DNA from: Methanobacteriota archaeon
Lineage (GTDB): Archaea; Thermoplasmatota; E2; DHVEG-1
Assembly: GCA_963769885.1 (NCBI GenBank)
Contig: CAVYNH010000004.1
Location: 160,001 to 224,000, forward strand
DNA: 64,000 bases
Reading direction: 5' to 3'
In this document: piece by piece, positions 2,544 through 60,863 of the stretch
Numbering within the stretch: position 1 is the first letter of the stretch
How the letters are laid out: each line of letters opens with the position of its first letter
Translations under genes and position numbers: made by a program
Notes under the pieces: model-generated
Databases searched by the model: none
Told to the model about the DNA's origin: nothing
What the model saw: the letters and a program-made list of their open reading frames with translations, nothing else

Positions 2544-3407
2544 ATGACGATCCTCCTGGTCTCCTCCAGCGAAGACCCCGCCAGCACCAACATCAAAGAC
2601 GGCCTCCTACAGCAACATGCTTGGCAGCAGACCGCCACCTTCTCCAACGCCCCCGCCTACACCTCCCCTACCCTCTACGACATCGTCCTCCTCACCATCC
2701 CCGACAGAAAGATCCGCCATGAACACCTCCAAGACGAAGTCACCGCAAGCCTCGGCATCACCCCAACCCTCGCCATCTTCCTCAGCCGCCACCGCAGCAA
2801 GACCGGCCCACCCACCCTCACCGTCCACCCCATCGGCAACTACGCCGCCGCCGAGTTCGGCGGCCGCCCCCAGACCCTCGTCCCCGCCGCCCCCCACATC
2901 CAGACCCAACTCCTCCGACTCATCAACACCCGCGTCGCCCAGACACAACTCCCGTACAAGGTCTGCTTCGAAGTCACCCACCACGGCCCCTACCTCACCA
3001 TCCCCACCCTCTTCGTCGAAGTCGGCAGCACCGAGACCCAATGGCAAGAAAAACCACCCGCCGACCTCATCGCCAGCGCCCTCCTCGACCTTCTCCCTAC
3101 CATCCCTATACTTAAACCCGATGTCCCGGTCCTCGTCGGCATCGGCGGCGGCCACTACGCCCCCCGCTTCACTGACATCGCCCTCCAACGACAGGCCAGC
3201 TTCGGCCACATGCTTCCCACCTACCACATCCAAGACGCAATCGATGAGCACATGCTCGAGCTCGCCTTCGCCGAGACCCCAAGCGTCACGGGCGCCTACC
3301 TGCACCGCAAGGAACTCAAGAAATCACAGGCCACCGCGCTGACGAAATGGTGCGACGCGCATGGCATCCCGGTCGTCTCGAGCAACAACCTGCCCCTGCT
3401 TCAGTAA
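2544..3407 (+). CDS. dtdA: Archaeal-type D-aminoacyl-tRNA deacylase
   Basis: DPAS.NI, SRHRS, LTVHPIGN, EVTHHGP, FVEVGS, GGGHYAP motifs. Confidence 0.93.
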   Translation: MTILLVSSSEDPASTNIKDGLLQQHAWQQTATFSNAPAYTSPTLYDIVLLTIPDRKIRHEHLQDEVTASLGITPTLAIFLSRHRSKTGPPTLTVHPIGNYAAAEFGGRPQTLVPAAPHIQTQLLRLINTRVAQTQLPYKVCFEVTHHGPYLTIPTLFVEVGSTETQWQEKPPADLIASALLDLLPTIPILKPDVPVLVGIGGGHYAPRFTDIALQRQASFGHMLPTYHIQDAIDEHMLELAFAETPSVTGAYLHRKELKKSQATALTKWCDAHGIPVVSSNNLPLLQ

Positions 3408-4322
3408 CCCCACCCCCGCCAGCACATGCGCCAGCCGCAACGGCTCTGGATGTTTCACCCGCGACGTCTTCTTCACGATTTCCACACACGACTCAAGCGA
3501 CATCCGATGCCCCGGCGAGACGTACAACGGCCGCGTCGCCGACCCCGAACACACCGCGACACCACGACGCTCCCCATCCACAAACACATCCGTCCCCCGG
3601 ACCTCCCCGCAGAGACGACTCTTCGCCACCCCGACCGTCGGCGTATCACAGACGACGCCGGCATGGCTCGCGAACCCACAGCGCGCCGGATGCAGGATCC
3701 CCTGACCATCCAGGAGCACCACAGACGGCGGTGAAGACGCCATCTTCAGCAGCCGCTCCACGAACGGCACCTCACGATACGAGAAATACGTCGGGATGAA
3801 CGGAAACCGCGTCGACAACGACACCGTCCGCTCCTCCACCACGGCCCCCGTCTTATAATCCACCGCCACATACGCCCCACACGCCTTCGCAAACTCACTC
3901 CTTGGATACGCCACGTCGATCCCCGCGACAACCTCCAGCGGCGGGAAATCATCCTCGACCCGCACCCGCTCACCGAGTTTCTGCTGCTCACGCCGCAGCC
4001 GACGCAAGGGAAACTCCGTCGAAAACTCATTGAAGAACACCCGATGAAAATCAACAATCATTCCATCCTGGACCTGCACATTCTCACGCGCAAGCCGACG
4101 CACCTTCTCCTCAAGCCCCAGACCGAACCCCCCGAGCCGACCATCGGAATGCACAACCTTGAAACACGGCATCCCCTCCGGATCCGGGTTCTGGTTCATC
4201 ATCCGCCCCACCGCCCGAGACGCCACAATGTCCCCCAACGCCGCGGCCACCGCCCCATACGACGTCACATGACCAGCCGGCACCTGACGCACCAAATCAT
4301 ACGTATACGCAATCAAATCCAT
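3324..4322 (-). CDS. O6-alkylguanine alkyltransferase (Ogt-like) domain fused to endonuclease V
   Basis: N-term VPAGHVTSYG, RAVG, PCFKVV; C-term GIDVAY, YRE, LDGQGILHP, GVAKS, SPGH, PEPLRLAH; likely ATG 4322. Confidence 0.9.
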   Translation of the reverse strand: MDLIAYTYDLVRQVPAGHVTSYGAVAAALGDIVASRAVGRMMNQNPDPEGMPCFKVVHSDGRLGGFGLGLEEKVRRLARENVQVQDGMIVDFHRVFFNEFSTEFPLRRLRREQQKLGERVRVEDDFPPLEVVAGIDVAYPRSEFAKACGAYVAVDYKTGAVVEERTVSLSTRFPFIPTYFSYREVPFVERLLKMASSPPSVVLLDGQGILHPARCGFASHAGVVCDTPTVGVAKSRLCGEVRGTDVFVDGERRGVAVCSGSATRPLYVSPGHRMSLESCVEIVKKTSRVKHPEPLRLAHVLAGVGLLKQGQVVARDDRDAMRVAPFRQRGGL

Positions 4323-4403
4323 AAACAACACAAGGATACCAGGAGAGGCGCTAAAAACCTTTCCCACCAAGTTTAAACCACCACCACCCAATCCCCCCAC
4401 CCA

Positions 4404-5180
4404 ATGGGATTCCTCAAATTCCTCGGCACCGCCGGCGCCCGCTTCGTCGTCATGCGCCAGCTCCGCGCCAGCGGCGGCCTCTGGCTCAACCTCGACGACA
4501 CCACCCTCCTCATCGACCCCGGCCCCGGCTGCCTCCTCCGCTGCCTCCACAGCCACCCACCCCTCGACCCACGCACCCTCGACGGCATCCTCCTCACCCA
4601 CCGCCACCTCGACCACTCAAACGACATCAACATCATGATCGAAGCCATGACCAACGGCGGCTACCACAAAAAAGGCACCGTCTACGCCCCCCAGGATGCC
4701 CTCACCGACGACCCCGTCATCCTCAGACACGCCCAACACCAAGTCAACACCCTCCAAACCCTCCACCCCACCCACACCTACACCCTCAACACCCTCACCC
4801 TCACCACCTCACCACCCCTCCACCACAGCGTCGAAACCTACGGCCTCACCATCCACGGAAAAACCCAAAGCATCGCCCTCATCACCGACACCGCCTACTA
4901 CCCCGACCTCACCACCCAATTCCCCGCCGACATCCTCATCATCAACGTCGTCCTCCAAGACAAAAAAGACGGCATCCAACACCTCAGCCTCCCCGACGCC
5001 GAAACCATCATCGCCGGCAACCACCCCCACCTCGCCGTCCTCACCCACTTCGGTATGACCCTCGTCAAAGCCCAGCCCCACACCGTCGCCCAAGCCATGG
5101 CCGAACGCCTCGGCATCCCCGTCATCGCCGCCACCGACGACCTCACCCTCCCCCTCCCCTACACCCACCCAACACCCTGA
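4404..5180 (+). CDS. MBL-fold metallo-hydrolase
   Basis: FLGTAG, LIDPGPG, THRHLDH, LTHFG motifs. Confidence 0.9.
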   Translation: MGFLKFLGTAGARFVVMRQLRASGGLWLNLDDTTLLIDPGPGCLLRCLHSHPPLDPRTLDGILLTHRHLDHSNDINIMIEAMTNGGYHKKGTVYAPQDALTDDPVILRHAQHQVNTLQTLHPTHTYTLNTLTLTTSPPLHHSVETYGLTIHGKTQSIALITDTAYYPDLTTQFPADILIINVVLQDKKDGIQHLSLPDAETIIAGNHPHLAVLTHFGMTLVKAQPHTVAQAMAERLGIPVIAATDDLTLPLPYTHPTP

Positions 5181-5215
5181 AAAGACCCACCACATTCCCT
5201 TCACCCAAAGACCCT

Positions 5216-6202
5216 ATGGACACCAGCCTCACCCACCTCCCCCGCTACAAAAACATCCTCTCTGGCAATGGCATCGCCGCCTACCTCACCACCAAACACC
5301 AGACTGTCGCTTATACCGACACCATGACCATTGACGAACTCTGGAAACAACACGACATCCCAGACCACTCCCCACCTCCCACTGATTCCTCACACAGCCT
5401 CCTCGGCCTCAAATGCACCATCGCACAGCGCATCCTCACCTCCTGCACCCTCTGCGAACGCCGCTGCCACACCAACCGACGACAACACCAGGGCCCCTGT
5501 CACACCCAACACTCCCACATCACCACCGAATTCCTGCACACCGGCGAAGAACCACCACTCATCCCCTCCCACACCATCTTCTTCTCCGGCTGCCCCCTCC
5601 ACTGCGCCTTCTGCCAAAACCACGACATCAGCCAGACCACCACCGGCACCACCATCCCACCACAAGAGCTTGCCCGCATCATCGCCGAACGCCATATCCA
5701 CGGCGCCCGCAACGTCAACTGGGTCGGCGGCGACCCCACCCCTAACCTCCCTTATATCCTCACCGTCCTCACCCATCTCATCACCAACACCCCCCAGATC
5801 TGGAACTCAAACATGTACTACAGCACCGAGACGATGCGCCTCCTCGACGGCATCATCGACCTCTACCTCACCGACTACAAGTTCGGCAACGACGCCTGCG
5901 CCATACGCCTCGCCGACGCCACCAACTATACCGCTGTCGTCCAGCGTAACCATCTTCATGCCGCAGAGACTGCGGATGTCCTCATCCGCCACCTCCTTCT
6001 TCCAAATCATTTCGAGTGCTGTACCATCCCTGCTCTCGATTGGATTGCCTCCAACATCCCCTCTGCTGTCGTCAACATCATGGCGCAATATCATCCTGAC
6101 TACCACGCCAATGAGTACCCCGATATCGCCAACACCATCGCTATCCAGGATTACCGTACCGCACTGAACTACGCTGAAACCCTCGGCCTGCATCTCATTT
6201 GA
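5216..6202 (+). CDS. Radical SAM protein (PflX-like)
   Basis: CTLCERRC plus CPLHCAFCQN, GGDPTP, IRHLLLPNH, MAQYHP. Confidence 0.88.
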   Translation: MDTSLTHLPRYKNILSGNGIAAYLTTKHQTVAYTDTMTIDELWKQHDIPDHSPPPTDSSHSLLGLKCTIAQRILTSCTLCERRCHTNRRQHQGPCHTQHSHITTEFLHTGEEPPLIPSHTIFFSGCPLHCAFCQNHDISQTTTGTTIPPQELARIIAERHIHGARNVNWVGGDPTPNLPYILTVLTHLITNTPQIWNSNMYYSTETMRLLDGIIDLYLTDYKFGNDACAIRLADATNYTAVVQRNHLHAAETADVLIRHLLLPNHFECCTIPALDWIASNIPSAVVNIMAQYHPDYHANEYPDIANTIAIQDYRTALNYAETLGLHLI

Positions 6203-6238: not shown

Positions 6239-7003
6239 TTATCGACGATGGTTCCAGGCCGGGTCGTCGAACATCTCTCGACGGTACCTTCTGGCGTACG
6301 CGGATTCCTCCGATGTGAGATAGCCGGGGTTGAAGGTGACGTCGAATTCTTCCTCGAAGCCCTTTCGCATGGCCAGGGCCGTCTCGTCGAAGGAGACGTC
6401 ACGGCCGAGGACAGCTTTCATCGAGGTGACCCTTTGCCGGGCATCGGTGATCAGTTTGTCCTTCAGCTTCTCATCGGGGACTTTGAGCAGCGAGAACATA
6501 GTGTCGACGTCGACATCGAGGAGGATGGTCCCGTGCTGGAGGACGACGCCCTGTTTACGCGTCTGGGCGTTCCCTGAGATTTTCTTGCCCCCTGCGAGGA
6601 TATCGTTGATTGGGGCGAAGCTGCTGTCGATATTGAGCTGTCTGAAACCGAGGATAAGGGCGTTGCAGATTCGTTCATAGCTTTGGATGATGTTCTGTGG
6701 CATCGCAGGATTGTTCTCCTCGATGACGATGCTGTATGTTAGTTCCGCGTCGTGGTAGACGGCGCCCCCGCCGGTGATGCGTCGGACGACGTCGACATGG
6801 TGCTGGTGGCAGGCCTGGAGGTCGACTTCCTCTTCGAGGCTTTGGAAGTAGCCTATGGAGATGGCGGGCGGCTGCCAGCGGTAGAAGCGGACGGTGGGGG
6901 GGACGAGGTGGCGGCGGTGTGCCTCAAGGATGGCACGGTCAATGGCCATGTTGGCAGATGCGGTGTTCGCACCTGTTTGAAGGAGTCGCCAGGGTTCGGT
7001 CAT
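6239..7003 (-). CDS. lplA: Lipoate-protein ligase, catalytic (N-terminal) subunit
   Basis: NMAID, RRITGGGAVYHD, KKISGNAQ, QHGTIL; ATGA overlap with upstream gene. Confidence 0.9.
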   Translation of the reverse strand: MTEPWRLLQTGANTASANMAIDRAILEAHRRHLVPPTVRFYRWQPPAISIGYFQSLEEEVDLQACHQHHVDVVRRITGGGAVYHDAELTYSIVIEENNPAMPQNIIQSYERICNALILGFRQLNIDSSFAPINDILAGGKKISGNAQTRKQGVVLQHGTILLDVDVDTMFSLLKVPDEKLKDKLITDARQRVTSMKAVLGRDVSFDETALAMRKGFEEEFDVTFNPGYLTSEESAYARRYRREMFDDPAWNHRR

Positions 7004-7296
7004 GGGAGGCACTTCAAGATGGCTTGGGTGAGGCCTTCGGGGGTGAGGCCGATGAGTTGGAGGTGGTGGGTGTCGATGAGGGAGGTTATTTTCTGGTGGA
7101 GGTCGTGCTGGGTGATAGGGGTGCCGGGGAGGCCGGTTTCGAGGATGTCGATGGCTTCTTCGGGGTAGGCGAAGAAGTCGCCGGTGATCTGGATGGTGGT
7201 GATGGTGTTGGTGGCGGGGTCGGTGGTGAGGGTGAGTTTGATGAGTTTGCCGTGGGGGTCTTTGTAGGTGATCTTGGTTGGGGTGGGTGTGGTCAT
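7000..7296 (-). CDS. Lipoate-protein ligase accessory (C-terminal domain) subunit, LplB-like
   Basis: GKLIK, I.ITGDFFAYPEEAI..LE..L.G motif. Confidence 0.85.
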   Translation of the reverse strand: MTTPTPTKITYKDPHGKLIKLTLTTDPATNTITTIQITGDFFAYPEEAIDILETGLPGTPITQHDLHQKITSLIDTHHLQLIGLTPEGLTQAILKCLP

Positions 7297-8162
7297 GGGG
7301 TGGCCTTGCGGGCGTGGGTGTAGGTTTGGTGGGCGTGGTAGGAGCTGCGGACGAGGGGGCCGGCTTCGATGGTGTGGATGCCGAGGGTGTGGGCGTAGGT
7401 TTTGAGGGCGTGGAATTCGGTGGGGGTGTAGTAGTGGTGGATGGGTTCGTGGTGTGTGGTGGGTTGGAGGTATTGGCCGATGGTGAGGATGTCGATGTTG
7501 GCGGTGTTGAGGTCGTGGAGGGTGTGGTGGATTTGTGCTGTAGTTTCGCCGAGGCCGATCATGAGGCCGGATTTGGTGGTGATGGTGGGGGCGATTGTTT
7601 TGGTGGTTTTGAGGAGGGTGAGGCTGGTGGTGTAGTTGCCTTGGGGGCGGATGGTGGGGAAGAGGGGTTGGACGGTTTCGATGTTGTGGTTGAGGATGTC
7701 GGGGTTGGCGTCAAGGATGGTGGTGAGGTGGGTGATGTTGCCTTGGAGGTCGGGGATGAGGGCTTCGATGGTGGTGAGTGGGTTGCGTTCACGGATTGCG
7801 GTGATGGTGGTGGCGAAGTGCTGGGCGCCGCCGTCCGGGAGGTTGTCGCGGGTGACGCTGGTGATGACGGCGTGGGTGAGGCTGAGGGTTTTGACTGCGG
7901 TGGCGACGTTAGTAGGTTCGGTGGGGTCTAGGGGGGTGGGGGTGCCGTGGTGGACGTGGCAGTAGCGGCAGTGTCTGGTGCAGGTGTCGCCGAGGATGAG
8001 GAAGACGGCGGTGCCAGCGGCGTAGCATTCGGCGAGGTTGGGGCATTTGGCTTCGTGGCAGATGGTGTGGAGGTTGGCGGATTTAAGGAGGGTAGTGATG
8101 GTCTGGTAGGTGGGGCCGCCGGGGATGGGGGTTTTGAGCCAGTCGGGGTGTCGTCTTGGCAT
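7293..8162 (-). CDS. lipA: Lipoyl synthase
   Basis: CHEAKCPNLAEC, CTRHCRYC, HNIETV, KSGLMIGLGE, RSSY. Confidence 0.96.
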   Translation of the reverse strand: MPRRHPDWLKTPIPGGPTYQTITTLLKSANLHTICHEAKCPNLAECYAAGTAVFLILGDTCTRHCRYCHVHHGTPTPLDPTEPTNVATAVKTLSLTHAVITSVTRDNLPDGGAQHFATTITAIRERNPLTTIEALIPDLQGNITHLTTILDANPDILNHNIETVQPLFPTIRPQGNYTTSLTLLKTTKTIAPTITTKSGLMIGLGETTAQIHHTLHDLNTANIDILTIGQYLQPTTHHEPIHHYYTPTEFHALKTYAHTLGIHTIEAGPLVRSSYHAHQTYTHARKATP

Positions 8163-8213
8163 AGGTGTGGGATGTTTAGGGGTGGGGTGGTTTTTGAGGT
8201 TTATGGTTTGTGG

Positions 8214-9428
8214 TTAGACGCCGATGGTGACTCTGAGGAGGTCGCGGAGTCCTGGGCTGGCGCCGAGGATGAGGATGCCGATTTTGAGGAGGTTGATGAG
8301 GCGGGGGTAGCGGTCGGTCTCGTGTTTGTAGGCGATGTCGAAGAGGTAGATGATGAGGAGGATGAGGAGGATTTTGATGAGAGGGTAGAGGGGGGGCCAG
8401 ATCGTGAGGAGGGCGTTGGAGGCGGGGTGTTTTTCGAGGTAGGGGGGGAGGCCGAGGTGGAGGGGGTCGGAGATGCTGAGGTAGCTGCTGACGCCGTCGA
8501 GGGTGTGGCCGGCGAGCATGGCGAGGTTGAGGGGGTTGGCGTAGGCTTTGAGGGGGGTGTTGCGGTAGTGGCGGCCGATGGCCCAGGTTGTTGTGGTGAC
8601 GAGGGTGACGATGAGAAGGTCGGCGGCGAGGACGGCGAGGTAGGTGCCTTGGGTGGGGCTCCAGGGGGTGAGGATGTAGTGGGCGATGAGGGCGGTGGAG
8701 GGGAGCAGGACGAGGAGGCCGCCGGAGAAGACAATGAGGTTGAGGCTTGGAATCCGATTTTTATATCCGGTCCAGGCGAGGGGGAGGAAGGCGAGGAGGG
8801 AGAGGGCGGTGAAGACGAGGGGGTGGAGGGGGGCGACGCCGCCGGTGTTCCCAGTGAGCCAGAGGAGGGTGTAGATGAGGTCGCCGAGGAGGAAGACGCC
8901 GAGCAGAAGGAGGGTGATGGCGCGGGGGGAGTGGTTCTTTGAGAGACGTCGTTCGGCGTAGAGGCCGAGGAAGAGGAAGACGAAGACGTAGAGGGCGGTC
9001 TGGACATAGAGGAGGGGGGAGATGAAGACGTAGACTGCGGGCGGGGTGAAGAAGGCAGTGTCTTCCAGGACTCTGGTAACCGGGCCGAAGAGGATGTAAG
9101 GCAGCAGGGCGAGGCAGAATCTCCAGTCGATTTGAATCTCGAGGCGTTTGAGGAGCTTATAAATGCCCAGGATGGCGAGGATGAGGATGATGCCGTAGGT
9201 GATCTCGGAGACGAGGGTGTAGCCTTCGTAGGCGGCCACGCCATGATAGACGGCAGGGTGGCTTTGGGCGTCCGCCATGACCGGGCCCCAGTAGTACTGC
9301 CAGATCCAGTGGTCGTAGAACACCGAGGGGAACAGGAGGCAGCCGGCGACGACGATAAGGACGACAAGGAGGGTGAGAAGGAGGCTGAGGCTGAGGAGGT
9401 GGCGGCGGAGGAGCGCGGGGGTCCTCAT
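8214..9428 (-). CDS. DUF63-family archaeal membrane protein
   Basis: YYWGP, RVLED, HTLDG.S, YLEKH, LGASPGLRDLLR motifs; many TM helices. Confidence 0.85.
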   Translation of the reverse strand: MRTPALLRRHLLSLSLLLTLLVVLIVVAGCLLFPSVFYDHWIWQYYWGPVMADAQSHPAVYHGVAAYEGYTLVSEITYGIILILAILGIYKLLKRLEIQIDWRFCLALLPYILFGPVTRVLEDTAFFTPPAVYVFISPLLYVQTALYVFVFLFLGLYAERRLSKNHSPRAITLLLLGVFLLGDLIYTLLWLTGNTGGVAPLHPLVFTALSLLAFLPLAWTGYKNRIPSLNLIVFSGGLLVLLPSTALIAHYILTPWSPTQGTYLAVLAADLLIVTLVTTTTWAIGRHYRNTPLKAYANPLNLAMLAGHTLDGVSSYLSISDPLHLGLPPYLEKHPASNALLTIWPPLYPLIKILLILLIIYLFDIAYKHETDRYPRLINLLKIGILILGASPGLRDLLRVTIGV

Positions 9429-9567
9429 GAGGCGGGCAAAGCCCCAGGCGGTTTATAAAGGCTGGCACGTGGCATCGTCGGCAGAATCCAGGAGGAGGTA
9501 GGGGTCTATAGGGAGGGGGGGATAAAAAAGTAATATAACGAACCTCCGGTTTACCTACTAGAGGCTC

Positions 9568-10665
9568 ATGGAGCGATTTAGTAAGCTGAAGTCCATGATT
9601 TTCCCCCGGGAGGTCGTCGTCGGGCATAACACGACAGACCAGATCAAGGGGATGTGCAACCGGTTGCTCATCGGCAACAAGGTCCTGCTCGTCTGCGATC
9701 GGAACACGCGGAAAATCTCCGGGGATAAGATCCATAAGATCCTCGCGGGCTCCGGCTATGAGGTTGAAAACGTTATCCTAGCGCAGCCGCTGCTGGCGAG
9801 GCGCCGTCGGCCGGTCGCCTGGCCGACCGTGCGGGAGGTCGCCAAGGTCGTGAAGGCCGCGGAGAAGACGGACTCCGAGATGCTCTTGGGCATCGGCGGC
9901 GGCTCGGTCATCGACGTCACCAAATTGGCTGCGTATGAATTATCCAAGAATTTTATCAGCATCCCGACGGTCGCATCCCACGACGGGATTGCGTCCCCGC
10001 GTGCCTCGCTGAAGGATCGGAAGGGATCCCTGTCGAAGACCGCGGTTTCCCCGATTGCGGTGCTGGCGGACACGGCGGTCATCTCCAAGGCGCCGTACCA
10101 GATGCTGGCGTCCGGATGCGCGGACGTGATCTCGAACCTGTCCGCAATCAAGGACTGGGAGCTGGCCCATCGATTGAAGAACGAGGAGTTCAGCAACTTC
10201 GCCGCGTCACTGTCGCAGACGTCGTCACAGCTCTTACTGGAGAAGGCGGAGGACATCCGCAGCGGGCTTGAGGAGGCGGTCTGGCAGGCGGTGAAATGCA
10301 TGATCGTTTCTGGCGTCGCGATGAGCGTGGCCGGGACAACGCGTCCGGCGTCCGGCGCGGAGCACATGTTTAGCCACATGCTGGATATGATTGCACCGGG
10401 GAAGGCCCTGCACGGGGAGCAGTGTGGGGTGGGCGCGATCATGATGATGTATCTCCATGGTGAGGACTGGGAGCGAATCAGGGATAGCCTCAAGACCATC
10501 GGGGCTCCGGTGAACGCTAAGGAGCTGGACATCCCGAAGAAGAAGATCATCCAGGCGCTGCTGGGGGCGCCGAAGATCCGCCCGGAGCGGTACACCATCC
10601 TCGGCGACCAGGGGTTGACTGAGGAGGCCGCGAAGAAGCTGGCGAAGATTACGGGGGTGATCTAA
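9568..10665 (+). CDS. egsA: sn-glycerol-1-phosphate dehydrogenase
   Basis: GIGGGSVIDVTK, PTVASHDGIAS, RPASGAEH.FSH, LHGEQCG. Confidence 0.95.
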   Translation: MERFSKLKSMIFPREVVVGHNTTDQIKGMCNRLLIGNKVLLVCDRNTRKISGDKIHKILAGSGYEVENVILAQPLLARRRRPVAWPTVREVAKVVKAAEKTDSEMLLGIGGGSVIDVTKLAAYELSKNFISIPTVASHDGIASPRASLKDRKGSLSKTAVSPIAVLADTAVISKAPYQMLASGCADVISNLSAIKDWELAHRLKNEEFSNFAASLSQTSSQLLLEKAEDIRSGLEEAVWQAVKCMIVSGVAMSVAGTTRPASGAEHMFSHMLDMIAPGKALHGEQCGVGAIMMMYLHGEDWERIRDSLKTIGAPVNAKELDIPKKKIIQALLGAPKIRPERYTILGDQGLTEEAAKKLAKITGVI

Positions 10666-52773: not shown

Positions 52774-52810
52774 CGCGTGCGGTGGATGGGTGGTCGGGCT
52801 AAAAATCTTC

Positions 52811-53218
52811 CTATAGAGGTGTCTCGGCTGGTCGTTTGTGGAAGAGGGTTTTTTGTTTGATGAAGTACCAGAGCATGATAAGGGGGAGGACGAGGAGTGC
52901 GAGTCTGAGCAGGATGTAGGGGGTGATGTAGCCGTAGTAGAGGTCGGAGACCATGGTAAATGCGTAGAGGATGGCGTAGAGGAAGGCGAGGATGGAGAAG
53001 GTCATGACGGTGAGGCGCGCCCAGTTCTGGAGTCGGAGGAGGCCCCAGCCGGCGAGGACGAGGAGGATGCCCATGAGAAGGAAGATGGTACTATAGACTG
53101 AGCTTGATTCTGAGGTGGCGTAGACGAGGAGGAGGTCGGTGCCGATGAGGATCCAGAAGACGGCGCAGAGCAGCACGCCGATCGGCAGGAAAGGGTTCTG
53201 GTCCGATGCCATGGCCAT
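52811..53218 (-). CDS. Four-TM hypothetical membrane protein
   Basis: Four hydrophobic segments; GL..L..WAR motif. Confidence 0.75.
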   Translation of the reverse strand: MAMASDQNPFLPIGVLLCAVFWILIGTDLLLVYATSESSSVYSTIFLLMGILLVLAGWGLLRLQNWARLTVMTFSILAFLYAILYAFTMVSDLYYGYITPYILLRLALLVLPLIMLWYFIKQKTLFHKRPAETPL

Positions 53219-53224
53219 ACGGGC

Positions 53225-53659
53225 TCATCCGCGGCGGCGCCGGAACGCGAGCACCGTGACGACAAGGACGAGGGCGCCGAGGGCGAAGACGGTCTCGAAT
53301 CCGGGGGTCCCCAGCGCCGTCGGTCGACTCTGATACGCGCTCTGGTTCCCGGTCATGTACGACGGGATATTCCATTCCAGGTACGACGACCCGGCGGTGT
53401 AGATGATGAGCATCACCAGCCCGAGGATCAAGATGAGCAGGCGGAGGGTCCGGTCGATCCCTTCGAGGCGGAGGCCCGCGACGATCAAGGTGCAGATCAG
53501 GCCGCCGACTGCGAGCAGTTTCACGGAGGCGGAGACGCGATACGGCACGAGATCCGTGGCGCTCCCGGGGAACACGGTGCTGATGATTCCTCCGACGAAC
53601 AGCAAGACGATTCCCGCGGACACTCCGAGCACTACCAGCCCTCTCACGACGTTCTTCAT
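53225..53659 (-). CDS. Three-TM membrane protein with PGF-CTERM-like tail
   Basis: Three TM helices then TPGFE + TM + RRRR. Confidence 0.8.
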   Translation of the reverse strand: MKNVVRGLVVLGVSAGIVLLFVGGIISTVFPGSATDLVPYRVSASVKLLAVGGLICTLIVAGLRLEGIDRTLRLLILILGLVMLIIYTAGSSYLEWNIPSYMTGNQSAYQSRPTALGTPGFETVFALGALVLVVTVLAFRRRRG

Positions 53660-54161: not shown

Positions 54162-55175
54162 ATGGAACAATCAACTATGAGCGCACCACACCCAAAACCA
54201 GCCTCTTCTAAACCCACCGTCGCCCTCTACTGGGCGGCCAGCTGCGGCGGCTGCGAAATCGCCATGCTCGACCTCGACGAAAAAATCCTCGACGTCGTCA
54301 ACGCCGTCGACCTCATCTTCTGGCCCGTCGCCCTCGACACCAAATACAAAGAAATCGAGGCCATGCCGGACCACAGCATCGACGTGTGCCTCTTCAACGG
54401 CGCCATCCGCACCACGGAAAACGAACACATGGCAAAACTCCTGCGCAAAAAAGCCAAAATCCTCATCGCCTTCGGCGCCTGCGCAGTCTCTGGCGGCATC
54501 CCCGGCCTCTCCAACCTCACCACCAAAAAGGACACCCTCACCACTGCCTACCTCGACAACCCCAGCACCCCCAACCCCACCAAGACACTCCCACAACCCC
54601 ATACGAAAGCCAAAGAAGGCGACCTCACCATCCCAGACCTCTACGAAACAGTCAAAACCCTTGACCAAACCGTCCCCGTCGACTACTACCTCCCCGGCTG
54701 CCCCCCACCCACTGACCTCATCCTCAACGCCCTCACCGCCATCACCACTAACACACTCCCAGAAAAAGGAACCGTCCTCGCCCCCTTGAAATCCGTCTGC
54801 GATGAATGCCGCTTCAAAAAAACCGATAAGAAAATGACCACCATCACCAGAATCCAAGACCTCGACCACACCCCCGACTCCTGCCTCCTCGACCACGGCC
54901 TCATCTGCCTCGGACCCGCCACCCGCGGCGGCTGCAAAGGACGCTGCATCGACGCCAACGCCCCCTGCACCGGCTGCGGCGGACTCCTCCCCAACAGCCT
55001 CGACCAGGGCGCCGCCATGATCACCGCCCTCGCCAGCCTCCTCGGAATCGAGACGGAAGACAAAACCACAGACCACGACCTCGACATCCTCCTCGCCAAG
55101 ATCCAGGACCTCGCCGGCACCTTCTACAAATACACCCTCCCAGCCTCCCTCATCAACAAGCGGAGGACCCCATGA
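54162..55175 (+). CDS. mvhG: F420-non-reducing (group 3c) [NiFe]-hydrogenase small subunit
   Basis: SCGGC, FGACA..GG, PGCPP, VCDEC, C.G..TRGGC...C....PCTGC. Confidence 0.9.
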   Translation: MEQSTMSAPHPKPASSKPTVALYWAASCGGCEIAMLDLDEKILDVVNAVDLIFWPVALDTKYKEIEAMPDHSIDVCLFNGAIRTTENEHMAKLLRKKAKILIAFGACAVSGGIPGLSNLTTKKDTLTTAYLDNPSTPNPTKTLPQPHTKAKEGDLTIPDLYETVKTLDQTVPVDYYLPGCPPPTDLILNALTAITTNTLPEKGTVLAPLKSVCDECRFKKTDKKMTTITRIQDLDHTPDSCLLDHGLICLGPATRGGCKGRCIDANAPCTGCGGLLPNSLDQGAAMITALASLLGIETEDKTTDHDLDILLAKIQDLAGTFYKYTLPASLINKRRTP

Positions 55176-56635
55176 CCAAGACCATCACCATCGACCCCAT
55201 CACCCGACTCGAAGGACACGGCAAAATCACCATCTTCCTCAACCAAAACGGAGACGTCGACAACGCCTACCTCCAAATCCCCGAACTCCGCGGCTTCGAA
55301 CGCTTCACCCAAGGCCGCCGCGCCGAAGACATGCCCCAAATCACCTCAAGGATCTGCGGCGTCTGCCCCGTCGCCCACCACATGGCCGCCACCAAAGCCT
55401 TGGACGCCGCCTACCACGCCCACCCCCCACCCACCGCCCAAAAACTCAGAGAACTCCTCTACATGGGCTACCTCATCTACGACCACATCCTCCACTTCTA
55501 CTTCCTCGGCGGACCAGACTTCATCGTCGGCCCCGACGCACCACCCGCCAAACGCAACATCCTCGGCGTCATCGAAAAAGCAGGCCTCGACGTCGGCAAA
55601 GACGTCATCAAACACCGCGCCTACGGCCAACAGATCACCGCCATCCTCGGCGGCAAAGCCACCCACCCCGTCTGCGGCATCCCCGGCGGCGTCACCAAAG
55701 GACTCACCACCGAGGAACAACAACGAATCCGACCCATGATCGCCAGCTGCAAAACCTTCGCCCAGTTCACCCTCAAACTCTTCAACGACATCGTCCTCCA
55801 AAACAACGACTACCTCAGCCTCATCAAATCCGACGCCTACACCCTCAAGACCTACAACATGGGCCTCGTCGACCACCACAACCACGTCGCCTTCTACGAC
55901 GGCACCATCCGCGTCACCGACCCCACCGGTAAAGAATATCTCACCTTTCAACCCCAAGACTACGCAAATCACATCGCCGAACACGTCGAACCCTGGAGCT
56001 ACATGAAATTCCCATACCTCAAAACACTCGGCTGGCACGGCCTCACCGACGGCAAAGACAACGGCATCTACCGCGTCGGACCCCTCGGCAGACTCAACGC
56101 CGCCGACGGCATGGCCACCCCCCACGCCAACAAAGAATACCAACGCCTCATGGAAACCCTCGGCAAACCCGTTCACTCAACGCTGGCCTTCCACTGGGCG
56201 CGACTCATCGAACTCCTCTACGCCACCGAACGCGCCCAAGAACTCATCGACAACCCCCACATCACCTCCACCCAGATCCGCGTCCCCGTCGGCACACCCA
56301 CCGAAGGCGTCGGCGTCGTCGAAGCCGCCCGCGGCACCCTCATCCACCACTACCAACTCACCCCCGACGGTCTCATCAAGAAAGCCAACCTCATCGTCGC
56401 CACCACAAACAACGCAGGCGCCATCACCATGTCCGTCCGCGACGCCGCCAAAGCCGTCATCCACAACGGCACCGTCAACGACGGCCTCCTTAACCGTATC
56501 GAGATGGCCTTCCGTGCCTACGACCCCTGCTTCGGCTGCGCCACTCACACGCTGCCCGGCGGCATGCCGCTCGCCGTGGACATCTACGACGCCCGTAAAC
56601 GCCTTGTTCACTCCCTCTCGCAGAACCTCTCCTAA
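55172..56635 (+). CDS. mvhA: F420-non-reducing [NiFe]-hydrogenase large subunit
   Basis: TRLEGHG, RICGVC, EAARG.L.H, DPCFGCATH plus cleavable tail. Confidence 0.93.
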   Translation: MTKTITIDPITRLEGHGKITIFLNQNGDVDNAYLQIPELRGFERFTQGRRAEDMPQITSRICGVCPVAHHMAATKALDAAYHAHPPPTAQKLRELLYMGYLIYDHILHFYFLGGPDFIVGPDAPPAKRNILGVIEKAGLDVGKDVIKHRAYGQQITAILGGKATHPVCGIPGGVTKGLTTEEQQRIRPMIASCKTFAQFTLKLFNDIVLQNNDYLSLIKSDAYTLKTYNMGLVDHHNHVAFYDGTIRVTDPTGKEYLTFQPQDYANHIAEHVEPWSYMKFPYLKTLGWHGLTDGKDNGIYRVGPLGRLNAADGMATPHANKEYQRLMETLGKPVHSTLAFHWARLIELLYATERAQELIDNPHITSTQIRVPVGTPTEGVGVVEAARGTLIHHYQLTPDGLIKKANLIVATTNNAGAITMSVRDAAKAVIHNGTVNDGLLNRIEMAFRAYDPCFGCATHTLPGGMPLAVDIYDARKRLVHSLSQNLS

Positions 56636-56644
56636 GGAAAGATC

Positions 56645-57115
56645 ATGAAGATCCTCATCCTCGGCATCGGCAATCCTATCCTGCAGAACGACAGCGTCGG
56701 CCTGCGCATCGCGGACGAACTCGAAACCATGATCAAGGACCCCGAGGTCAGAGTCGACACGGTCTACACCGGCGGTTTGAACCTCTTGGACTGCATCCGT
56801 GGCTTCGACAAAGTCATCCTCATCGATGCCGTCAATGATACCAAGGAGATCGGGACGGTAAGCCGGTATCAACTCCATGAGCTTCCCCCAGGGCATTCCT
56901 GTAACCTGCACGACTGCTCCCTGCTGGAGGCCGTGCAGTTAGCCAAGGCGCTCGGCGATACGAATATCCCTCAGGACATCGTTATCATTGGGGTCTCGGT
57001 GCCCCCAGCTGTTGAATTCGGTGAGAACCTCAGCCCCATGGTTGAACAGGCCATCCCGAAGGTTTTGACTAGTGTCCTGACTGAGCTCGACCAAAAAACG
57101 AGGAGAAGGGCATGA
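56645..57115 (+). CDS. Hydrogenase maturation protease
   Basis: [21 protein letters not shown]. Confidence 0.92.
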
Positions 57116-57534
57116 CGGAGAAAGAATTCGAGCCGAACATCATCGGGTTTCTCTGCAACTGGTGCAGCTACGCTGGTGCGGATTTGGCAGGCACGAGCCG
57201 GATGAAGTACCCGCCGAACCTCAAGGCGATCCGCGTGATGTGCTCGGGGCGGGTCGACCCCGCCTTCGTCCTTGAGGCGCTGTCCCGTGGCGCGGACGGC
57301 GTACTCATCGCGGGGTGCCATCCCGGAGACTGCCATTATCAATCTGGGAACTACAAGATGAACCGACGGATGCGGCTGCTGCGCAAGCTCGTCGAGGAAC
57401 TGGGCATCGAGCCGCAACGAATCCGTTTCGAGTACATCTCGGCCGCGGAGGGACAGAAGTTCGCCTCGGTCGTCACAGAGTTCGTCACCGAAATTAAGAA
57501 GCTTGGCCCGATGACACCCGCAAAACCCGAGTAA
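57112..57534 (+). CDS. mvhD: Hydrogenase iron-sulfur subunit
   Basis: [25 protein letters not shown]. Confidence 0.95.
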
Positions 57535-57540: not shown

Positions 57541-59583
57541 TCAGCTGGGATTGCCGCCGGCATAGTCAACCGGGGCGACGAGGGGTTTTTTCGTCCCATA
57601 ATACAGCACCTGTTCTGCTTTGCTGCCGTAGCGGTACACGGTGACGCCCTTACAACCGAGCTCCCAGGCCTTCATGTAAATTGCCCGGATATCACCGACG
57701 GTCGCATCATGGGGGAGGTTGACAGTCTTGCTGACGGCGTTGTCGACATGGCGCTGGAAAACAGCCTGCATCTGGAGATGGGATTCTGGGGATATATCCG
57801 CTGCCGTGACGAAGATCTTCTTAAGGTCCAGGGGAAGGGGGAGGTTTTTGACTGATTTCGTTTTTGCGAGTTTATCGATGAGGTCGTTTGTGTAGAGTCC
57901 GCGTTTGAGGAGGGCGAGTTTGAGGGGTTCGCTGACCTCCTGGAGGAGTTTGCCTTCCATGACGCGGCGGTAGAAGACCAGGGCGAAGACAGGTTCGATG
58001 CCAGAGGAGCAGCCAGCGATGATGCTGATGGTGCCGGTGGGGGCGATAGTAAGGTGGGTGGCATTGCGCATAGCTGGATAGCGTGTGGCCCAGGTGCTGT
58101 CTTGGAAGGCAGGGAAGGAGCCGCGCTGCTGACCGAGTTCGACTGATTTTTTGATGGCTTCTTTTTGGATGAAGCGGATGAGACGGTCAGCAATCCTGAG
58201 CCCTTCGTCGCCGTCGTACGGAATCTGGAGGGTGTAGAGGAGTTCGGCGAGGCCCATGACGCCGAGGCCAATCTTGCGGTGCTCTTTGACTATCTTTTCC
58301 GTTTCGGGTAGTGGGTATTTGTTAGCGTCGATGACGTCGTCGAGGAATTGGACGGTGAGGCGGACGGTGAGGCGGAGTTTGTCCCAGTCGATTTTTCTCT
58401 TGGGTGTGATCATTTTCATGAGGTTGATGCTGCCGAGATTGCAGGATTCGTAGGGGAGGAGAGGGACTTCACCGCAGGGGTTCGTAGCTTCGATGTTTCC
58501 GATTTTTTTGAGGGTGTGGCGGCGGTTGATCTCGTCGATGAAGAGGAGGCCGGGGTCGCCGGTCTCCCAGGCGCTTTGGGCGATGAGTGAGAAGAGGTCG
58601 GCGGCTGGGATTTTCTTGATGATTCTATTGGTTTTAGGACTGCGGAGGCTGAGGGGCTCGTTCTTTCTGATTTTCTTCATGAAGGCGTCGGTGGCGGCGA
58701 CGCTGATGTTGAAGTTGGTGAGGCGTCGGCCGGTTTTGGAGGTGGTGAAGTCTTCGATGTCGGGGTGGGTACAGTGGAGGATGCCGATGTTGGCGCCGCG
58801 TCGTTTGCCGCCTTGTTTGATGACGTCGGTGGTCTGGTCGTAGATGTTCATGAAGCTGACGGGGCCGCTGGCGACGCCGCTGGTGCTGCGGACGACCGCG
58901 CCTTTCTCGCGGAGGCGACTGAAGCTGAAGCCGGTGCCGCCGCCAGATTGTTGGATGAGGGCCATGTGTTTGAGGGTGGTGAAGATGCTTTGGAGGCTGT
59001 CTTCTATTGGGAGGACGAAGCAGGCGGCGAGCTGGCCGAGGGGGGTGCCGGCGTTCATGAGGGTGGGGCTGTTGGGGAGGAACTCGAGGTTGGCCATCAT
59101 GTGGTAGAAGGCGTCTGCGGTCTCCTGGATGTTGCCGCCGTACTGTTTCTCGGGTGTGGCGATGGCGTCGGCGACGCGGTGGAAGAGCTGGGTTGGTGTC
59201 TCGGTGATGTGGCCGGTTTCGTCGCGTTGGAGGTAGCGTTCTTCGAGGACTTTGAGGGCGTTGGCGCTGAGTTTGAGGTCGTCTTTGATGTGGAAGTAGG
59301 TTTTAATCTGGCGGGCGGGGCCGCGGCTGCGGCGGTAGAGGCTGTAGGCCATGAAGAGGCGTTTGTCGTAGGCTTCGAGGGCGTCTTCGACGTGGTCTTG
59401 GATGGTCTCGATGTCCGTGACGTCTGTCGGTGGGAGGCTGCGGGTGACTTGGGCGGCGAGGCGGGCGGCGGCGGGGTCGTCGTGGATGTCGATGGCGGCC
59501 ATGGCCTTGCGGATGGCGGCAGCGATCTTGTCTTGGGTGAAGGGGACGAGTTCGCCGGTGCGTTTCCTCACCTGGGTCGGCAT
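57541..59583 (-). CDS. nrdJ: Adenosylcobalamin-dependent (class II) ribonucleotide reductase with ATP cone
   Basis: VRKR.G ATP cone, PNSPTLMNAG, ACFV, TNPCGE, IAPTGTIS, SKTVN, KGVTVYR. Confidence 0.93.
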   Translation of the reverse strand: MPTQVRKRTGELVPFTQDKIAAAIRKAMAAIDIHDDPAAARLAAQVTRSLPPTDVTDIETIQDHVEDALEAYDKRLFMAYSLYRRSRGPARQIKTYFHIKDDLKLSANALKVLEERYLQRDETGHITETPTQLFHRVADAIATPEKQYGGNIQETADAFYHMMANLEFLPNSPTLMNAGTPLGQLAACFVLPIEDSLQSIFTTLKHMALIQQSGGGTGFSFSRLREKGAVVRSTSGVASGPVSFMNIYDQTTDVIKQGGKRRGANIGILHCTHPDIEDFTTSKTGRRLTNFNISVAATDAFMKKIRKNEPLSLRSPKTNRIIKKIPAADLFSLIAQSAWETGDPGLLFIDEINRRHTLKKIGNIEATNPCGEVPLLPYESCNLGSINLMKMITPKRKIDWDKLRLTVRLTVQFLDDVIDANKYPLPETEKIVKEHRKIGLGVMGLAELLYTLQIPYDGDEGLRIADRLIRFIQKEAIKKSVELGQQRGSFPAFQDSTWATRYPAMRNATHLTIAPTGTISIIAGCSSGIEPVFALVFYRRVMEGKLLQEVSEPLKLALLKRGLYTNDLIDKLAKTKSVKNLPLPLDLKKIFVTAADISPESHLQMQAVFQRHVDNAVSKTVNLPHDATVGDIRAIYMKAWELGCKGVTVYRYGSKAEQVLYYGTKKPLVAPVDYAGGNPS

Positions 59584-59671: not shown

Positions 59672-59872
59672 TTAGGCGTTCTTCATGTCTTCGTCGATGA
59701 GCCGGTCCAGATCCTTGTCCACGCCCTGCTTGCGGGCGATGTTCTGCAGCTCCGCGATGACGTTCTCCCAGAGGACCTGCTGGGCGAGGGCGTAGTCCCA
59801 CATGTCCAGGCGCGTGGGCCCGTCCGCATTCTTGAACTCCTCGATAAACTCTTTCTTATCGTTGTCGTCCAT
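59672..59872 (-). CDS. 66-aa acidic helical protein, paralogue B
   Basis: MDDNDKKEFIEEFKNADGPTRLDMWDYALAQQVLWENVIAELQNIA... Confidence 0.75.
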   Translation of the reverse strand: MDDNDKKEFIEEFKNADGPTRLDMWDYALAQQVLWENVIAELQNIARKQGVDKDLDRLIDEDMKNA

Positions 59873-59877
59873 ACTCG

Positions 59878-60054
59878 CTATTCTTCCGTTATGCGTGCCT
59901 TGGGGTTCGCCGTCTGCGCGATCGTCGACATCTCGGCCAGGAGCTCCTCCCAGATGGCCTCCTGCTCGACCGCGTAGTACCACAGGTCCAACTTCTTGGT
60001 GATGTCCGCCTTCGTGAAGTCGCTGAGGAAGGCCTTCATTTCGTCCTCATTCAT
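59878..60054 (-). CDS. 58-aa acidic helical protein, paralogue A
   Basis: MNEDEMKAFLSDFTKADITKKLDLWYYAVEQEAIWEELLAEMSTIA... Confidence 0.75.
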   Translation of the reverse strand: MNEDEMKAFLSDFTKADITKKLDLWYYAVEQEAIWEELLAEMSTIAQTANPKARITEE

Positions 60055-60200
60055 GGCTGATCCGAATCCCGTACCGGCGTTTCCGTTTGCGTTTCGATAG
60101 AATACCTCACAAGTATATAAGCCCAACGTGTTCGCCGCCCCCTGCTTCCCTGGAGAAAACCAATGGGTTAATAAGACTATAGGATGTTGGCGCTGGCCGC

Positions 60201-60863
60201 ATGATTTCTGTCGTGTCCTTCGACCTTGACGGCACCCTGACCACGTCGTCGTTCGCAGACGCCGTCTGGCTCGACGGCCTGCCCCGGCTCTACGCACAAA
60301 CCACCGGCAAAGACCTCGCCGCTGCGAAGCAGGAGCTGTTCGCGGAGTACGACCGGATCGGCGACCAGCGCCTCGAGTGGTACGACCCCGCCTACTGGTT
60401 CGACCGCTTCCACCTCCCCGGCGACTGGCGCACCATGCTTTATCAGAACCGTTCTCATATCGCCTGCTATCCGGACGTACCCGTGGTCCTCCCCCGCCTC
60501 GCCACACACTACACGCTCATCGTCAGCTCCAACGCGAAACGCGAGTTCATCGACATCGAACTCCAAGAGCTCCACCTCCGCGACTGCTTCACCCACATCT
60601 TCTCCTCCACCTCTGATTTCCATACCGTCAAGAAGGTCACGGAGTTCTACGCTATGATCTGCCAACGACTCAATGTCACACCCTCGCAGATTGTCCACGT
60701 CGGCGATTCCAAACGTTTCGATTACGACGCCCCGCTGGCGGCGGGGATCTCCGCCTATTTCCTGGACCGCACCAGTAAAGAACATGGACCTTTCGTGGTT
60801 CATACGCTTCTTGAATTCGAAGACAAACTAATAAAAAATGAAACGGGGGTTTTGCCCCTATGA
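60201..60863 (+). CDS. HAD-family hydrolase
   Basis: FDLDGTL, SSN, KK, HVGD....D. Confidence 0.92.
   Translation: MISVVSFDLDGTLTTSSFADAVWLDGLPRLYAQTTGKDLAAAKQELFAEYDRIGDQRLEWYDPAYWFDRFHLPGDWRTMLYQNRSHIACYPDVPVVLPRLATHYTLIVSSNAKREFIDIELQELHLRDCFTHIFSSTSDFHTVKKVTEFYAMICQRLNVTPSQIVHVGDSKRFDYDAPLAAGISAYFLDRTSKEHGPFVVHTLLEFEDKLIKNETGVLPL

Follow-up and report, generated by a model that had tools for sequence, protein, structure and literature searches.

Strand asymmetry is the main read-out of replication, transcription and repair that can be obtained from sequence alone, and in archaea it is usually weak. Here we describe a stretch of 64,000 nucleotides (the window; positions 160001–224000 of contig C4) from assembly G000 of an uncultured wetland Thermoplasmatota archaeon (GCA_963769885.1; 2.09 Mb in 7 contigs, 55% GC), in which C/A-rich blocks of a few kilobases take turns with G/T-rich ones along the plus strand. 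In this genome the asymmetry is as strong as that of animal mitochondria, and it is arranged in hundreds of small domains that are not fully set by gene direction. A literature search found no description of such a pattern for Thermoplasmatota or other archaea.

Vertebrate mitochondrial DNA, with its AC-rich L strand and GT-rich H strand (PMC1794132, PMC4182315), shows the same axis of A+C against G+T, with a similar strength at fourfold-degenerate sites. As in our window, the sense strand of most genes is AC-rich, gradients run along the molecule and amino-acid usage is shifted, while ND6 follows the physical strand, as Ogt-EndoV and Pat do here. However, each 16-kb mitochondrial molecule has one polarity and one asymmetric replication mode, whereas we find hundreds of alternating domains in 2.1 Mb. 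The changes also differ, since the mitochondrial ones are transitions (C to T and A to G on the exposed strand) and enrich both A and C, while here C alone is enriched, A is flat, and the net difference between species lies mainly between G and C. The GRINS of bacteria (PMC8256042) also present intense, abrupt and correlated GC and TA skews that are strongest at third codon positions, with shifts of Gly, Val, Cys and Trp against Pro, Thr, His and Gln; a link with gene conversion is suspected. The skew by which they are recognized (mean |GC| and |TA| skew above 0.15, and correlated) is found in the window, with 1-kb GC skews of up to 0.61. Nevertheless, GRINS are defined as duplicated (more than 500 bp with more than 80% identity) in gene clusters, whereas the skewed blocks of the window are single-copy. 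Its only repeats are three weakly skewed pieces of 214–227 nt from Big_7 genes, with 71–77% identity, which fall short of that definition, and the skew extends here over the entire native chromosome, including the spacers. Yeast origins and human N-domains (PMC3459929) share with this genome the large number of switch points, at which jumps of one polarity are sharper and returns more gradual, but their amplitudes are tiny and their domains range from tens of kilobases to megabases, compared with ±0.9 at silent sites over 2–6 kb here. Finally, in unicellular fungi (PMC3315797) coding strands are biased to C where the gene begins and shift gradually to G towards the 3' end, at fourfold sites, in flanking non-coding DNA and in amino acids. 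That pattern is gene-bound, whereas here a quarter or more of the skewed genes are reversed from their 5' end, and the amplitude is far larger.

We measured the asymmetry as K3, defined as (G+T-C-A)/n at third codon positions, so that negative values denote a C/A-rich and positive values a G/T-rich strand. Genes with a C/A-rich coding strand are called concordant, and those with a G/T-rich coding strand, which follow the physical strand, discordant or reversed. Sixty-two open reading frames (ORFs) of the window were scanned against Pfam, and genes with a GC content at third positions (GC3) of at least 0.65 were taken as native. The matches depict an archaeal gene set, with D-tyrosyl-tRNA deacylase, DUF63, UPF0179, NMD3, MvhD and a NiFe hydrogenase.

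The alternation of blocks had been described by eye in an initial annotation of the window, and the skews calculated per kilobase placed the block limits where it had drawn them. GC skew goes from -0.58 (4.5–5.5 kb) to +0.61 (7–8 kb), with an AT skew of opposite sign. The signal is concentrated at third codon positions, where K3 is as high as ±0.9, and it is also present in spacers and, more weakly, in amino-acid usage. The gene at 4404–5180 (+), for instance, combines a GC3 of 0.88 with third-position GC and AT skews of -0.91 and +0.87, and the GC3 skew of LipA (7293–8162, -) is -0.94. The standard deviation of K3 across 500-nt bins was 0.50, compared with a mean of 0.081 and a maximum of 0.098 in 200 permutations of the third positions. 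Low-GC stretches of the window (22–26.3, 37.5–40.1, 50.9–51.7 and 61–64 kb) were devoid of skew. Genome-wide, the per-kilobase |GC skew| has a median of 0.17 and a 90th percentile of 0.39, and GC and AT skews are correlated (r=-0.78), which indicates a single axis of C+A against G+T. We delimited 458 domains of uniform sign (median length 2.5 kb) and saw no large-scale trend, physical K3 averaging around 0 per 50 kb.

The pattern had initially been likened to a sawtooth. A sawtooth does exist, but it is only moderately asymmetric, with 32 abrupt drops from G/T to C/A against 17 abrupt rises in the whole genome (13 against 2 at a stricter threshold). The fading of the skew along four genes was confirmed by their own-strand K3, which goes, from 5' to 3', from -0.61/-0.76 to -0.10 in nifJ, from -0.75 to -0.29 in nrdJ, from -0.95 to -0.38 in the phosphofructokinase (PFK) gene, and through -0.80, -0.41 and -0.25 in the gene for the HD protein. 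The amino-acid shift also proved to be real: LipA contains 52 Thr and 24 His in 289 residues, while its orthologue in G001, a relative of the same genus, has 29 and 15. Skew-driven changes of this kind (+23 Thr and +9 His with respect to the congener) may distort protein phylogenies.

What determines the skew is the DNA strand and the place, and not codon choice. In 163 spacers with flanks of the same sign, the skew over all sites follows that of the flanks (r=0.87), with mean K values of +0.25 versus -0.22, and K at the first and second codon positions tracks K3 (r=0.76 and 0.41, respectively). It is therefore not confined to coding sites, and in discordant genes it runs against the coding strand. 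Fourfold sites of unskewed native genes contain C, G, T and A in fractions of 0.44, 0.34, 0.12 and 0.10, compared with 0.85, 0.04, 0.025 and 0.085 on the C-rich strand. Reversed genes are the complement of the latter, with up to 78% G, and in domains of both signs C or G accounts for 0.78–0.85 of the fourfold sites. On the G-rich strand A and C are depleted and T is unchanged. The depletion fits a spectrum of C to T and A to G changes on an exposed strand, but T is not raised and the net difference between species is mostly between G and C, at sites too saturated to polarize. The depleted bases showed no dependence on the 5' or 3' neighbor, and hence no APOBEC-like signature.

Regarding the relation between skew and gene direction, we called genes genome-wide with a logistic model of our own, built on the S/W and R/Y content of each codon position and blind to the keto/amino axis. 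Its training accuracy on the window ORFs was 97%, and it recovered 45 of 47 verified genes, although some strongly reversed genes, such as Ogt-EndoV, were missed. Among the skewed genes, 686 are concordant and 278 discordant, and overall around 69–75% have a C/A-rich coding strand, a loose coupling to gene direction. Physical K3 is explained to a small extent by the gene's own strand (R2 0.17) and to a larger one by the physical K3 of its neighbors (R2 0.56), and genes opposed to both neighbors still correlate with the physical skew of these (r=0.51). The claim that a gene's own strand does not fully account for its skew therefore stands, both genome-wide and for the Pfam-verified genes of the window (R2 0.36). 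According to these results, the polarity of the skew is tied to chromosomal position more than to the individual gene.

Within the window, 26 of the 40 Pfam-verified native genes have a C/A-rich coding strand, nine are reversed and five are neutral. The nine are not shadow ORFs, since all of them give clear Pfam domain matches. Strong Pfam matches were also found for 13 of 20 randomly chosen, strongly reversed calls elsewhere in the genome (the match rate of the window candidates was 77%), among them GluRS, RNA polymerase subunit D, archaellin, a second PFK and AsnA. Five genes had originally been singled out as opposing their block: Ogt-EndoV, DUF6015, the B12-binding radical SAM gene, the HhH-GPD gene and Pat. 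All of them do follow the physical strand, but Pat does not oppose its neighbors, being co-directional with them and still reversed. Gene callers, and detectors of horizontal gene transfer or unusual codon usage, will mishandle genomes like this one because its shadow ORFs are often longer than the true genes.

We then compared the window with related genomes. The relative G001, a metagenome-assembled genome from lake sediment, has a contig (CAIRCU010000044.1, or C44; 83.9 kb) that is collinear with the entire window, with each opposing gene in the same relative orientation and with the low-GC islands missing; these islands are recent arrivals, still lacking the skew. The K3 values of orthologues correlate between both genomes (r=0.78), with an amplitude in G001 that is 0.57 of that in G000. 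Identity at fourfold sites is often at the level expected from composition (for example 0.62 versus 0.57, and 0.57 versus 0.56), and both lineages are therefore maintaining the pattern. Deviations of K3 within genes are correlated too (r=0.72), nifJ not being fully saturated. A third lineage is represented by a locus from another metagenome (L141; nifJ with 88% amino-acid identity). The fade along nifJ is repeated in G001 and L141, and Pat is reversed in both (+0.28 in G001). Because three independent assemblies agree, an assembly artefact is excluded. Near-identical strains were not found in the metagenome collection, where the best amino-acid identities for nifJ were 92% and 88%. Most members of the family have a GC content of 0.28–0.37 and an ordinary purine skew only, and the keto/amino skew is confined to G000, G001 and G014 and, more weakly, G015 and G005. 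G014 and G015, whose skew is weaker, have GC contents of 0.46 and 0.40. GC content and keto skew showed no general correlation among 22 relatives (rho 0.15). The genome-wide asymmetry is specific to this Thermoplasmatota genus, and appears in weaker form in one or two sister genera.

The genome has one orc1/cdc6 gene (C6:260359-261630), and the adjoining 400-bp spacer (C6:261.7-261.9 kb) is oriC. On either side of a long A/T run it has a box with the core of the origin recognition box (ORB); one box is an exact copy, TTCCAGTGGAAA, and the other differs from it at one position. To the left K3 is +0.77, and to the right it is -0.17 to -0.70 over around 4 kb, through discordant genes. The left-minus-right difference is 1.0, and only 6.6% of spacers exceed 0.8. 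On both sides of the origin, the strand that leaves it in the 5' to 3' direction is rich in C and A, on one side contrary to gene direction, and thus has the same sign as the A+C-rich leading strand of yeast (PMC3459929). This skew is local (about 4 kb) and not replichore-wide. A genome-wide scan of the spacers at other switches gave no further ORB core. Separately, a palindromic, ORB-like intergenic 12-mer, TTCCATTGGAAA, lies at a strong G/T to C/A switch (left minus right 1.05) at G000:C7:507948, and could be a second origin-like site or a coincidence. Directly downstream of orc1/cdc6 and co-directional with it is the gene for NucS/EndoMS (both within G000:C6:259505-261630), the only mismatch system found in the genome. 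A uracil-DNA glycosylase (UDG) is present, while MutS and a Y-family polymerase were not found in the genome. EndoMS/NucS is known to cut G/T, G/G and T/T mispairs well, T/C and A/G less so, and C/C, A/C and A/A hardly at all (PMC4838380).

Gene junctions gave further information on how the domains are arranged. The physical K3 of adjacent genes is correlated to the same extent across divergent (r=0.49) and convergent (r=0.50) junctions, and around 70% of the native pairs of either kind carry one common physical sign. When the sign switches, it does so from G/T to C/A at divergent junctions (35 cases against 2) and from C/A to G/T at convergent ones (30 against 4). Switches take less than 0.5 kb at divergent spacers, while those at convergent ends are spread over about 1.5 kb, and the amplitudes flanking divergent spacers are anticorrelated (r=-0.57, p=3e-12). 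Spill-over from a concordant gene into its opposite-strand neighbor was seen in 37 divergent (upstream) versus 35 convergent (downstream) pairs of the same sign. In these, the skew of the discordant partner peaks at the junction and decays from 0.50 to 0.25 over some 1.5 kb, whereas that of the concordant partner stays level. Position within a domain has no bearing on the share of concordant genes, which is 0.69 where the C/A strand begins (5'), equal to the overall value. More than 9 kb into long co-directional runs, 42% of the genes are discordant versus 32% concordant, and skew fades with rank along such runs. Two-sided foci at co-directional gaps were considered and rejected: the shift at the 3' end of genes is equal with a tight or a wide downstream gap, and the skew upstream of strong onsets is still concordant on average. 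As a separate observation, the 6-mer CCGAGG/CCTCGG occurs in six of the seven most strongly mirrored divergent spacers and in three of 55 weak ones. We do not trust this result, which comes from seven cases and a test of thousands of k-mers.

The explanation we lean towards, tentatively, is a locally anchored, strand-specific process of DNA synthesis or single-strand exposure, perhaps filtered by NucS. Every weakly constrained position of one strand (fourfold sites, spacers and, in part, codon positions 1 and 2) is driven towards C in zones of around 2–6 kb, with the partner strand complementary. This would be the work of a local DNA transaction that acts unequally on the two strands along tracts of a few kilobases with soft ends, and that is loosely tied to promoter-containing spacers and to oriC. 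One strand might be repeatedly re-synthesized, by recombinational or gap repair or by replication restart; equivalently, its partner might repeatedly be single-stranded for long. NucS could then act as a filter: as it hardly cuts A/C, C/C and A/A but does cut G/T, G/G and T/T, changes to A or C arising on the re-synthesized strand would be kept, and changes to G or T eliminated. With slightly less assurance, we consider it possible that the transaction is an undescribed one, which re-synthesizes or exposes one strand over 2–6 kb in a few hundred fixed zones, including one at oriC; origin-independent, recombination-primed DNA synthesis and strand-specific heteroduplex correction by NucS would be candidates. 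If so, its imprint would be strong enough to raise the GC content of the genome, recode proteins and reach an asymmetry of mitochondrial strength, and the sequence itself would map where and which way the process acts. Local synthesis or repair would also turn the skew into a map, at base resolution, of where a process not yet accessible in culture initiates and how long its tracts are, would make it a natural test of the effect on genomes, over evolutionary time, of the specificity of NucS/EndoMS, which sees keto-type mismatches and misses amino-type ones, and may explain the skews of GRINS in bacteria.

Several observations weigh against a locally anchored process of synthesis or exposure. 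To begin with, the proposal that asymmetry arises from many local foci, made in the initial annotation, is only half sustained: asymmetry of strand and place is clear and foci are possible, but no anchor common to the domains was found among those tested (ORB core, indels and island flanks). In particular, the divergence in skew between G000 and G001 was not significantly related to adjacent indels, as anchoring at strain-variable DNA would have it (rho=0.21, p=0.21, n=36), and island flanks are shifted by only around ±0.13. Abrupt switches occur with either polarity, as seen near C4:282.5 kb and, within the window, at 6.2 kb. The polarity of switches at divergent and convergent junctions is concordant, as a process started at promoters would give; strong C/A onsets at co-directional junctions fall at promoter-sized gaps (20% of gaps of 200–400 bp versus 1% of tight ones); and genes of at least 450 aa fade from 5' to 3' (own K3 of -0.40, -0.38 and -0.25 by thirds, p=5e-12). 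The NucS filter fits the axis incompletely, as it explains neither the rise of C alone nor the restriction to one genus. NucS and UDG are likewise present, and MutS and a Y-family polymerase likewise not found, in unskewed relatives, so gene content offers no cause for the genus specificity. Polymerases rarely make C/C mispairs, and neither simple deamination nor NucS-filtered errors predict a flat A with a doubled C. Moreover, the net difference of G000 over G001 on the C-rich strand is made up of 387 G to C, 167 A to C, 119 T to C and 56 G to A changes. Lastly, the genome-wide figures depend on our own gene caller, perhaps 15% of whose reversed calls are wrong. Among the Pfam-verified genes of the window, own strand (R2 0.36) does better than neighbors (0.25; 0.51 for both together). 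The genome-wide contrast between own strand and neighbors is therefore probably somewhat inflated by miscalls, though the neighbor effect is real.

One could argue that transcription drives the asymmetry, its sign being set by the net direction of transcription, read-through and antisense included, and the template becoming G/T-rich. Most skewed genes have a C/A-rich coding strand, and the polarity of the switches, the fade along long genes and co-directional runs and the onsets at promoter-sized gaps all go in this direction, as does the position of six of the nine discordant genes of the window, directly downstream of a convergent gene with strong skew. The C to G drift along coding strands of unicellular fungi, which affects fourfold sites and amino acids, would be a precedent (PMC3315797). 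Nonetheless, spill-over is as frequent upstream as downstream and has an amplitude of 0.5 at the junction, and the roughly 70% of divergent pairs with a common sign include a gene that is discordant from its 5' end. These two results show that read-through transcription alone fails. The first of them also ruled out read-through from convergent neighbors as the cause of all reversed genes. Pat is reversed within a co-directional run in three lineages, and the genes to the right of oriC are discordant. Highly expressed genes have no consistent sign or strength of skew. In the ribosomal protein supercluster (C4:271.9-288.2 kb), where all genes are on the plus strand, K3 runs through -0.82, -0.64 and -0.53, around 0 for 5 kb, -0.5 to -0.75 and finally +0.42 to +0.71, a swing that argues against expression level as the determinant. 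Judging by other genes, used only as proxies for expression, EF1A (-0.21), EF2 (-0.51) and the thermosome (-0.45) have one sign, and RpoD (+0.42) and archaellin (+0.42) the other. In bacteria and mammals, furthermore, transcription-associated bias leaves a G+T-rich coding strand, which is the opposite sign. None of the sequencing runs listed for the window was of RNA, and nanopore metatranscriptomes of the same study had almost none of its sequence words. Long read-through transcription, put forward initially as a possible source of the pattern, hence cannot be the whole story, and we regard transcription-driven asymmetry as unlikely.

An asymmetry that reinforces itself is a more doubtful option. 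The G-rich strand would be preferentially exposed or damaged when the duplex opens, so that skew begets skew without fixed initiation sites, possibly by means of R-loops formed by G-rich transcripts of either sense, or of single-strand-binding proteins that protect the pyrimidine-rich strand. This would agree with the near saturation of both signs, with a polarity kept between species despite turnover at silent sites, with abrupt switches of both polarities and no anchor motif found, and with the loss from the G-rich strand of A and C, the readily deaminating bases, while T stays unchanged. However, R-loops predict G-rich coding strands in expressed genes and the majority shows the opposite, and the depletion does not depend on sequence context. 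The polarity of switches at junctions and the link with oriC would be left unexplained, and the idea is purely inferential.

We find it very improbable that the domains stem from many replication origins, with replication starting at each abrupt switch from G/T to C/A and ending at random along each gradual return. It is true that the polarity at oriC matches both the abrupt switches and the A+C-rich leading strand of yeast (PMC3459929), that abrupt drops outnumber rises, and that around 70% of the skewed genes run with the putative fork direction. But the ORB core occurs once, with one near-copy beside it, so that many canonical origins, the dispersed initiation suggested by the initial annotation, are unlikely. 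The skew at oriC does not extend into a replichore-wide trend, and zero plateaus, such as that of 5 kb in the ribosomal protein cluster, and abrupt switches of opposite polarity misfit linear N-domains. To our knowledge, around 230 origins in 2.1 Mb would be without archaeal precedent, and the amplitude is far above any replication skew we know of.

Selection on codon usage or mRNA composition, either for C/A-rich, unstructured messages or for the NNC and NNA codons read by G34/U34 tRNAs, deserves barely any credit. Most genes do use C- and A-ending codons on their own strand. Yet spacers carry the skew too, a quarter to 30% of the skewed genes use the opposite codons, including genes of translation and transcription, the sign changes within genes, and opposite-strand neighbors share a physical sign; we excluded such selection on the grounds of the skewed spacers and the reversed genes. 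Least credible of all, and excluded at the depth of the genus, is that opposing genes are recent inversions or transfers with the skew of a former context, since G001 is collinear with equal orientations and no inversion was found, the reversed skew recurs in G001 and L141, gradients cross gene borders and change inside genes, and the truly foreign DNA, the low-GC islands, is unskewed.

The blocks, islands and genes of the window that bear on the skew are collected in Table 1.

Table 1. Skewed blocks, unskewed islands and selected genes along the window. Positions are those of the window; K3 refers to the coding strand where marked as own.
Feature	Position	Strand	Skew and remarks
Reversed gene, PTPS	1912–2280	-	Pfam match
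C/A-rich plus-strand block	2501–6200	+	K3 -0.49 to -0.87; DTD (+), Ogt-EndoV (-), MBL-fold (+), radical SAM (+)
Ogt-EndoV fusion, discordant	3324–4616	-	Own GC3 skew +0.54, AT3 skew -0.68; antisense between plus-strand genes
G/T-rich plus-strand block	6239–12352	-	LplA, LipA, DUF63 (-), K3 to +0.90; MetK (-), +0.4 to +0.6
Glycerol-1-phosphate (G1P) dehydrogenase-like (Fe-ADH_2) and UPF0179, weakly discordant	9568–11093	+	Own K3 +0.23, +0.14; in G001 +0.18, +0.15
Reversed gene, G1P-dehydrogenase-like	9568–10665	+	Pfam match
Reversed gene, UPF0179	10668–11093	+	Pfam match
C/A-rich block	12426–14000	+	DUF6015 (-) weakly discordant; PfkB kinase (+)
Reversed gene, DUF6015	12426–12881	-	Pfam match
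HD-domain gene	14262–15515	-	Skew fades 5' to 3'
Tandem Big_7 paralogues	15569–18942	-	Intermediate GC3; weak skew grading from the sign of the left block to that of the right block
C/A-rich block	19092–21908	+	K3 about -0.55 to -0.70; thioredoxin, AhpC-like and ferredoxin-type genes
Low-GC unskewed island	22000–26301	.	GC3 0.17–0.63; absent from the collinear G001 contig
B12-binding radical SAM, discordant	27830–29173	+	Own K3 +0.48; PF04055, PF02310, PF13282
C/A-rich block, CysH/CysN/CysC-like operon	30778–33491	+	K3 -0.70 to -0.85; abrupt start at divergent spacer, about 30.7 kb
HhH-GPD glycosylase (discordant) and next ORF	33500–35072	-	Own K3 of glycosylase +0.58; C/A block decays across both to zero at about 35 kb
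FG-GAP/PKD gene	35231–37390	-	Plus strand G/T-rich; own K3 fades from -0.75 to -0.17, 5' to 3'
Low-GC unskewed island	37500–40111	.	Absent from G001; ends at tRNA-Leu(CAA), 40026–40111 (-)
C/A-rich block	40240–42169	+	PFK (+) fading; skew runs on into convergent discordant TruA (-), +0.21
Reversed gene, TruA	41414–42169	-	Pfam match
G/T-rich block	42172–44099	-	NMD3 and EamA (-), both concordant
Pat (ADP-forming acyl-CoA synthetase and GNAT), discordant	44476–47247	-	Own K3 +0.14 to +0.50
nifJ-type PFOR	47380–50934	-	Plus strand G/T-rich; own K3 fades
G/T-rich block	51739–53659	-	Deacetylase and two small ORFs; abrupt end at divergent spacer, 53.7–54.1 kb
C/A-rich block, NiFe-hydrogenase small and large subunits	54162–57534	+	K3 -0.70 to -0.87; decays to about 0 over HycI and MvhD
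Ribonucleotide reductase, nrdJ-like	57541–59583	-	Plus strand G/T-rich; own K3 fades
HAD hydrolase, short weak C/A-rich block	60201–60863	+	Followed by unskewed lower-GC MEDS/PAS sensor gene, 61069–63999

Some of these features merit a comment. The Ogt-EndoV fusion is supported by strong Pfam matches (PF04493, 3.9e-53; PF01035, 2.3e-22) and has the same orientation in G001; its ORF overlaps DTD by 84 nt at the 3' end. At the 5' end it would overlap the MBL-fold gene, by as much as 213 nt if translation begins at the first start codon. The first G/T-rich block is weak over the two discordant genes that it contains. The B12-binding radical SAM gene lies within a G/T-rich block (27.0–30.5 kb) and adjoins a convergent Big_7 gene (29144–30601, -).

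The tandem Big_7 (bacterial Ig-like) paralogues amount to four or five copies, with repeat units that are 71–77% identical at a spacing of around 852 nt. Copies are fewer in G001, which points to a local expansion of this surface-protein family. The first island contains DUF5343, two unknown ORFs and a 626-aa FG-GAP repeat protein. The second one has an unknown ORF (37753–38601) and a TM1586-type nitroreductase (39003–39785), looks like an element integrated at the tRNA-Leu(CAA) gene, and is abutted by both neighboring blocks at the point of their strongest skew.

The HhH-GPD gene (its ORF being 33500–34318) also carries a C-terminal match to a TrmB-like winged helix (PF01978, 8e-5), so that a repair enzyme is joined, unusually, to a domain of the kind found in regulators. 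The sign of the skew differs between two ATP-PFK (PF00365) paralogues, with an own K3 of about -0.8 for the window copy (40240–41262) and +0.64 for the other (G000:C6:561055-562176). The PFK of the window, the S-adenosylmethionine synthetase at 11108–12352 (PF00438/02772/02773), which is of bacterial type, and the fused nifJ-type PFOR coexist in this archaeon, and the next-best matches of nifJ outside Thermoplasmatota are bacterial (Halanaerobiales and Desulfovibrio).

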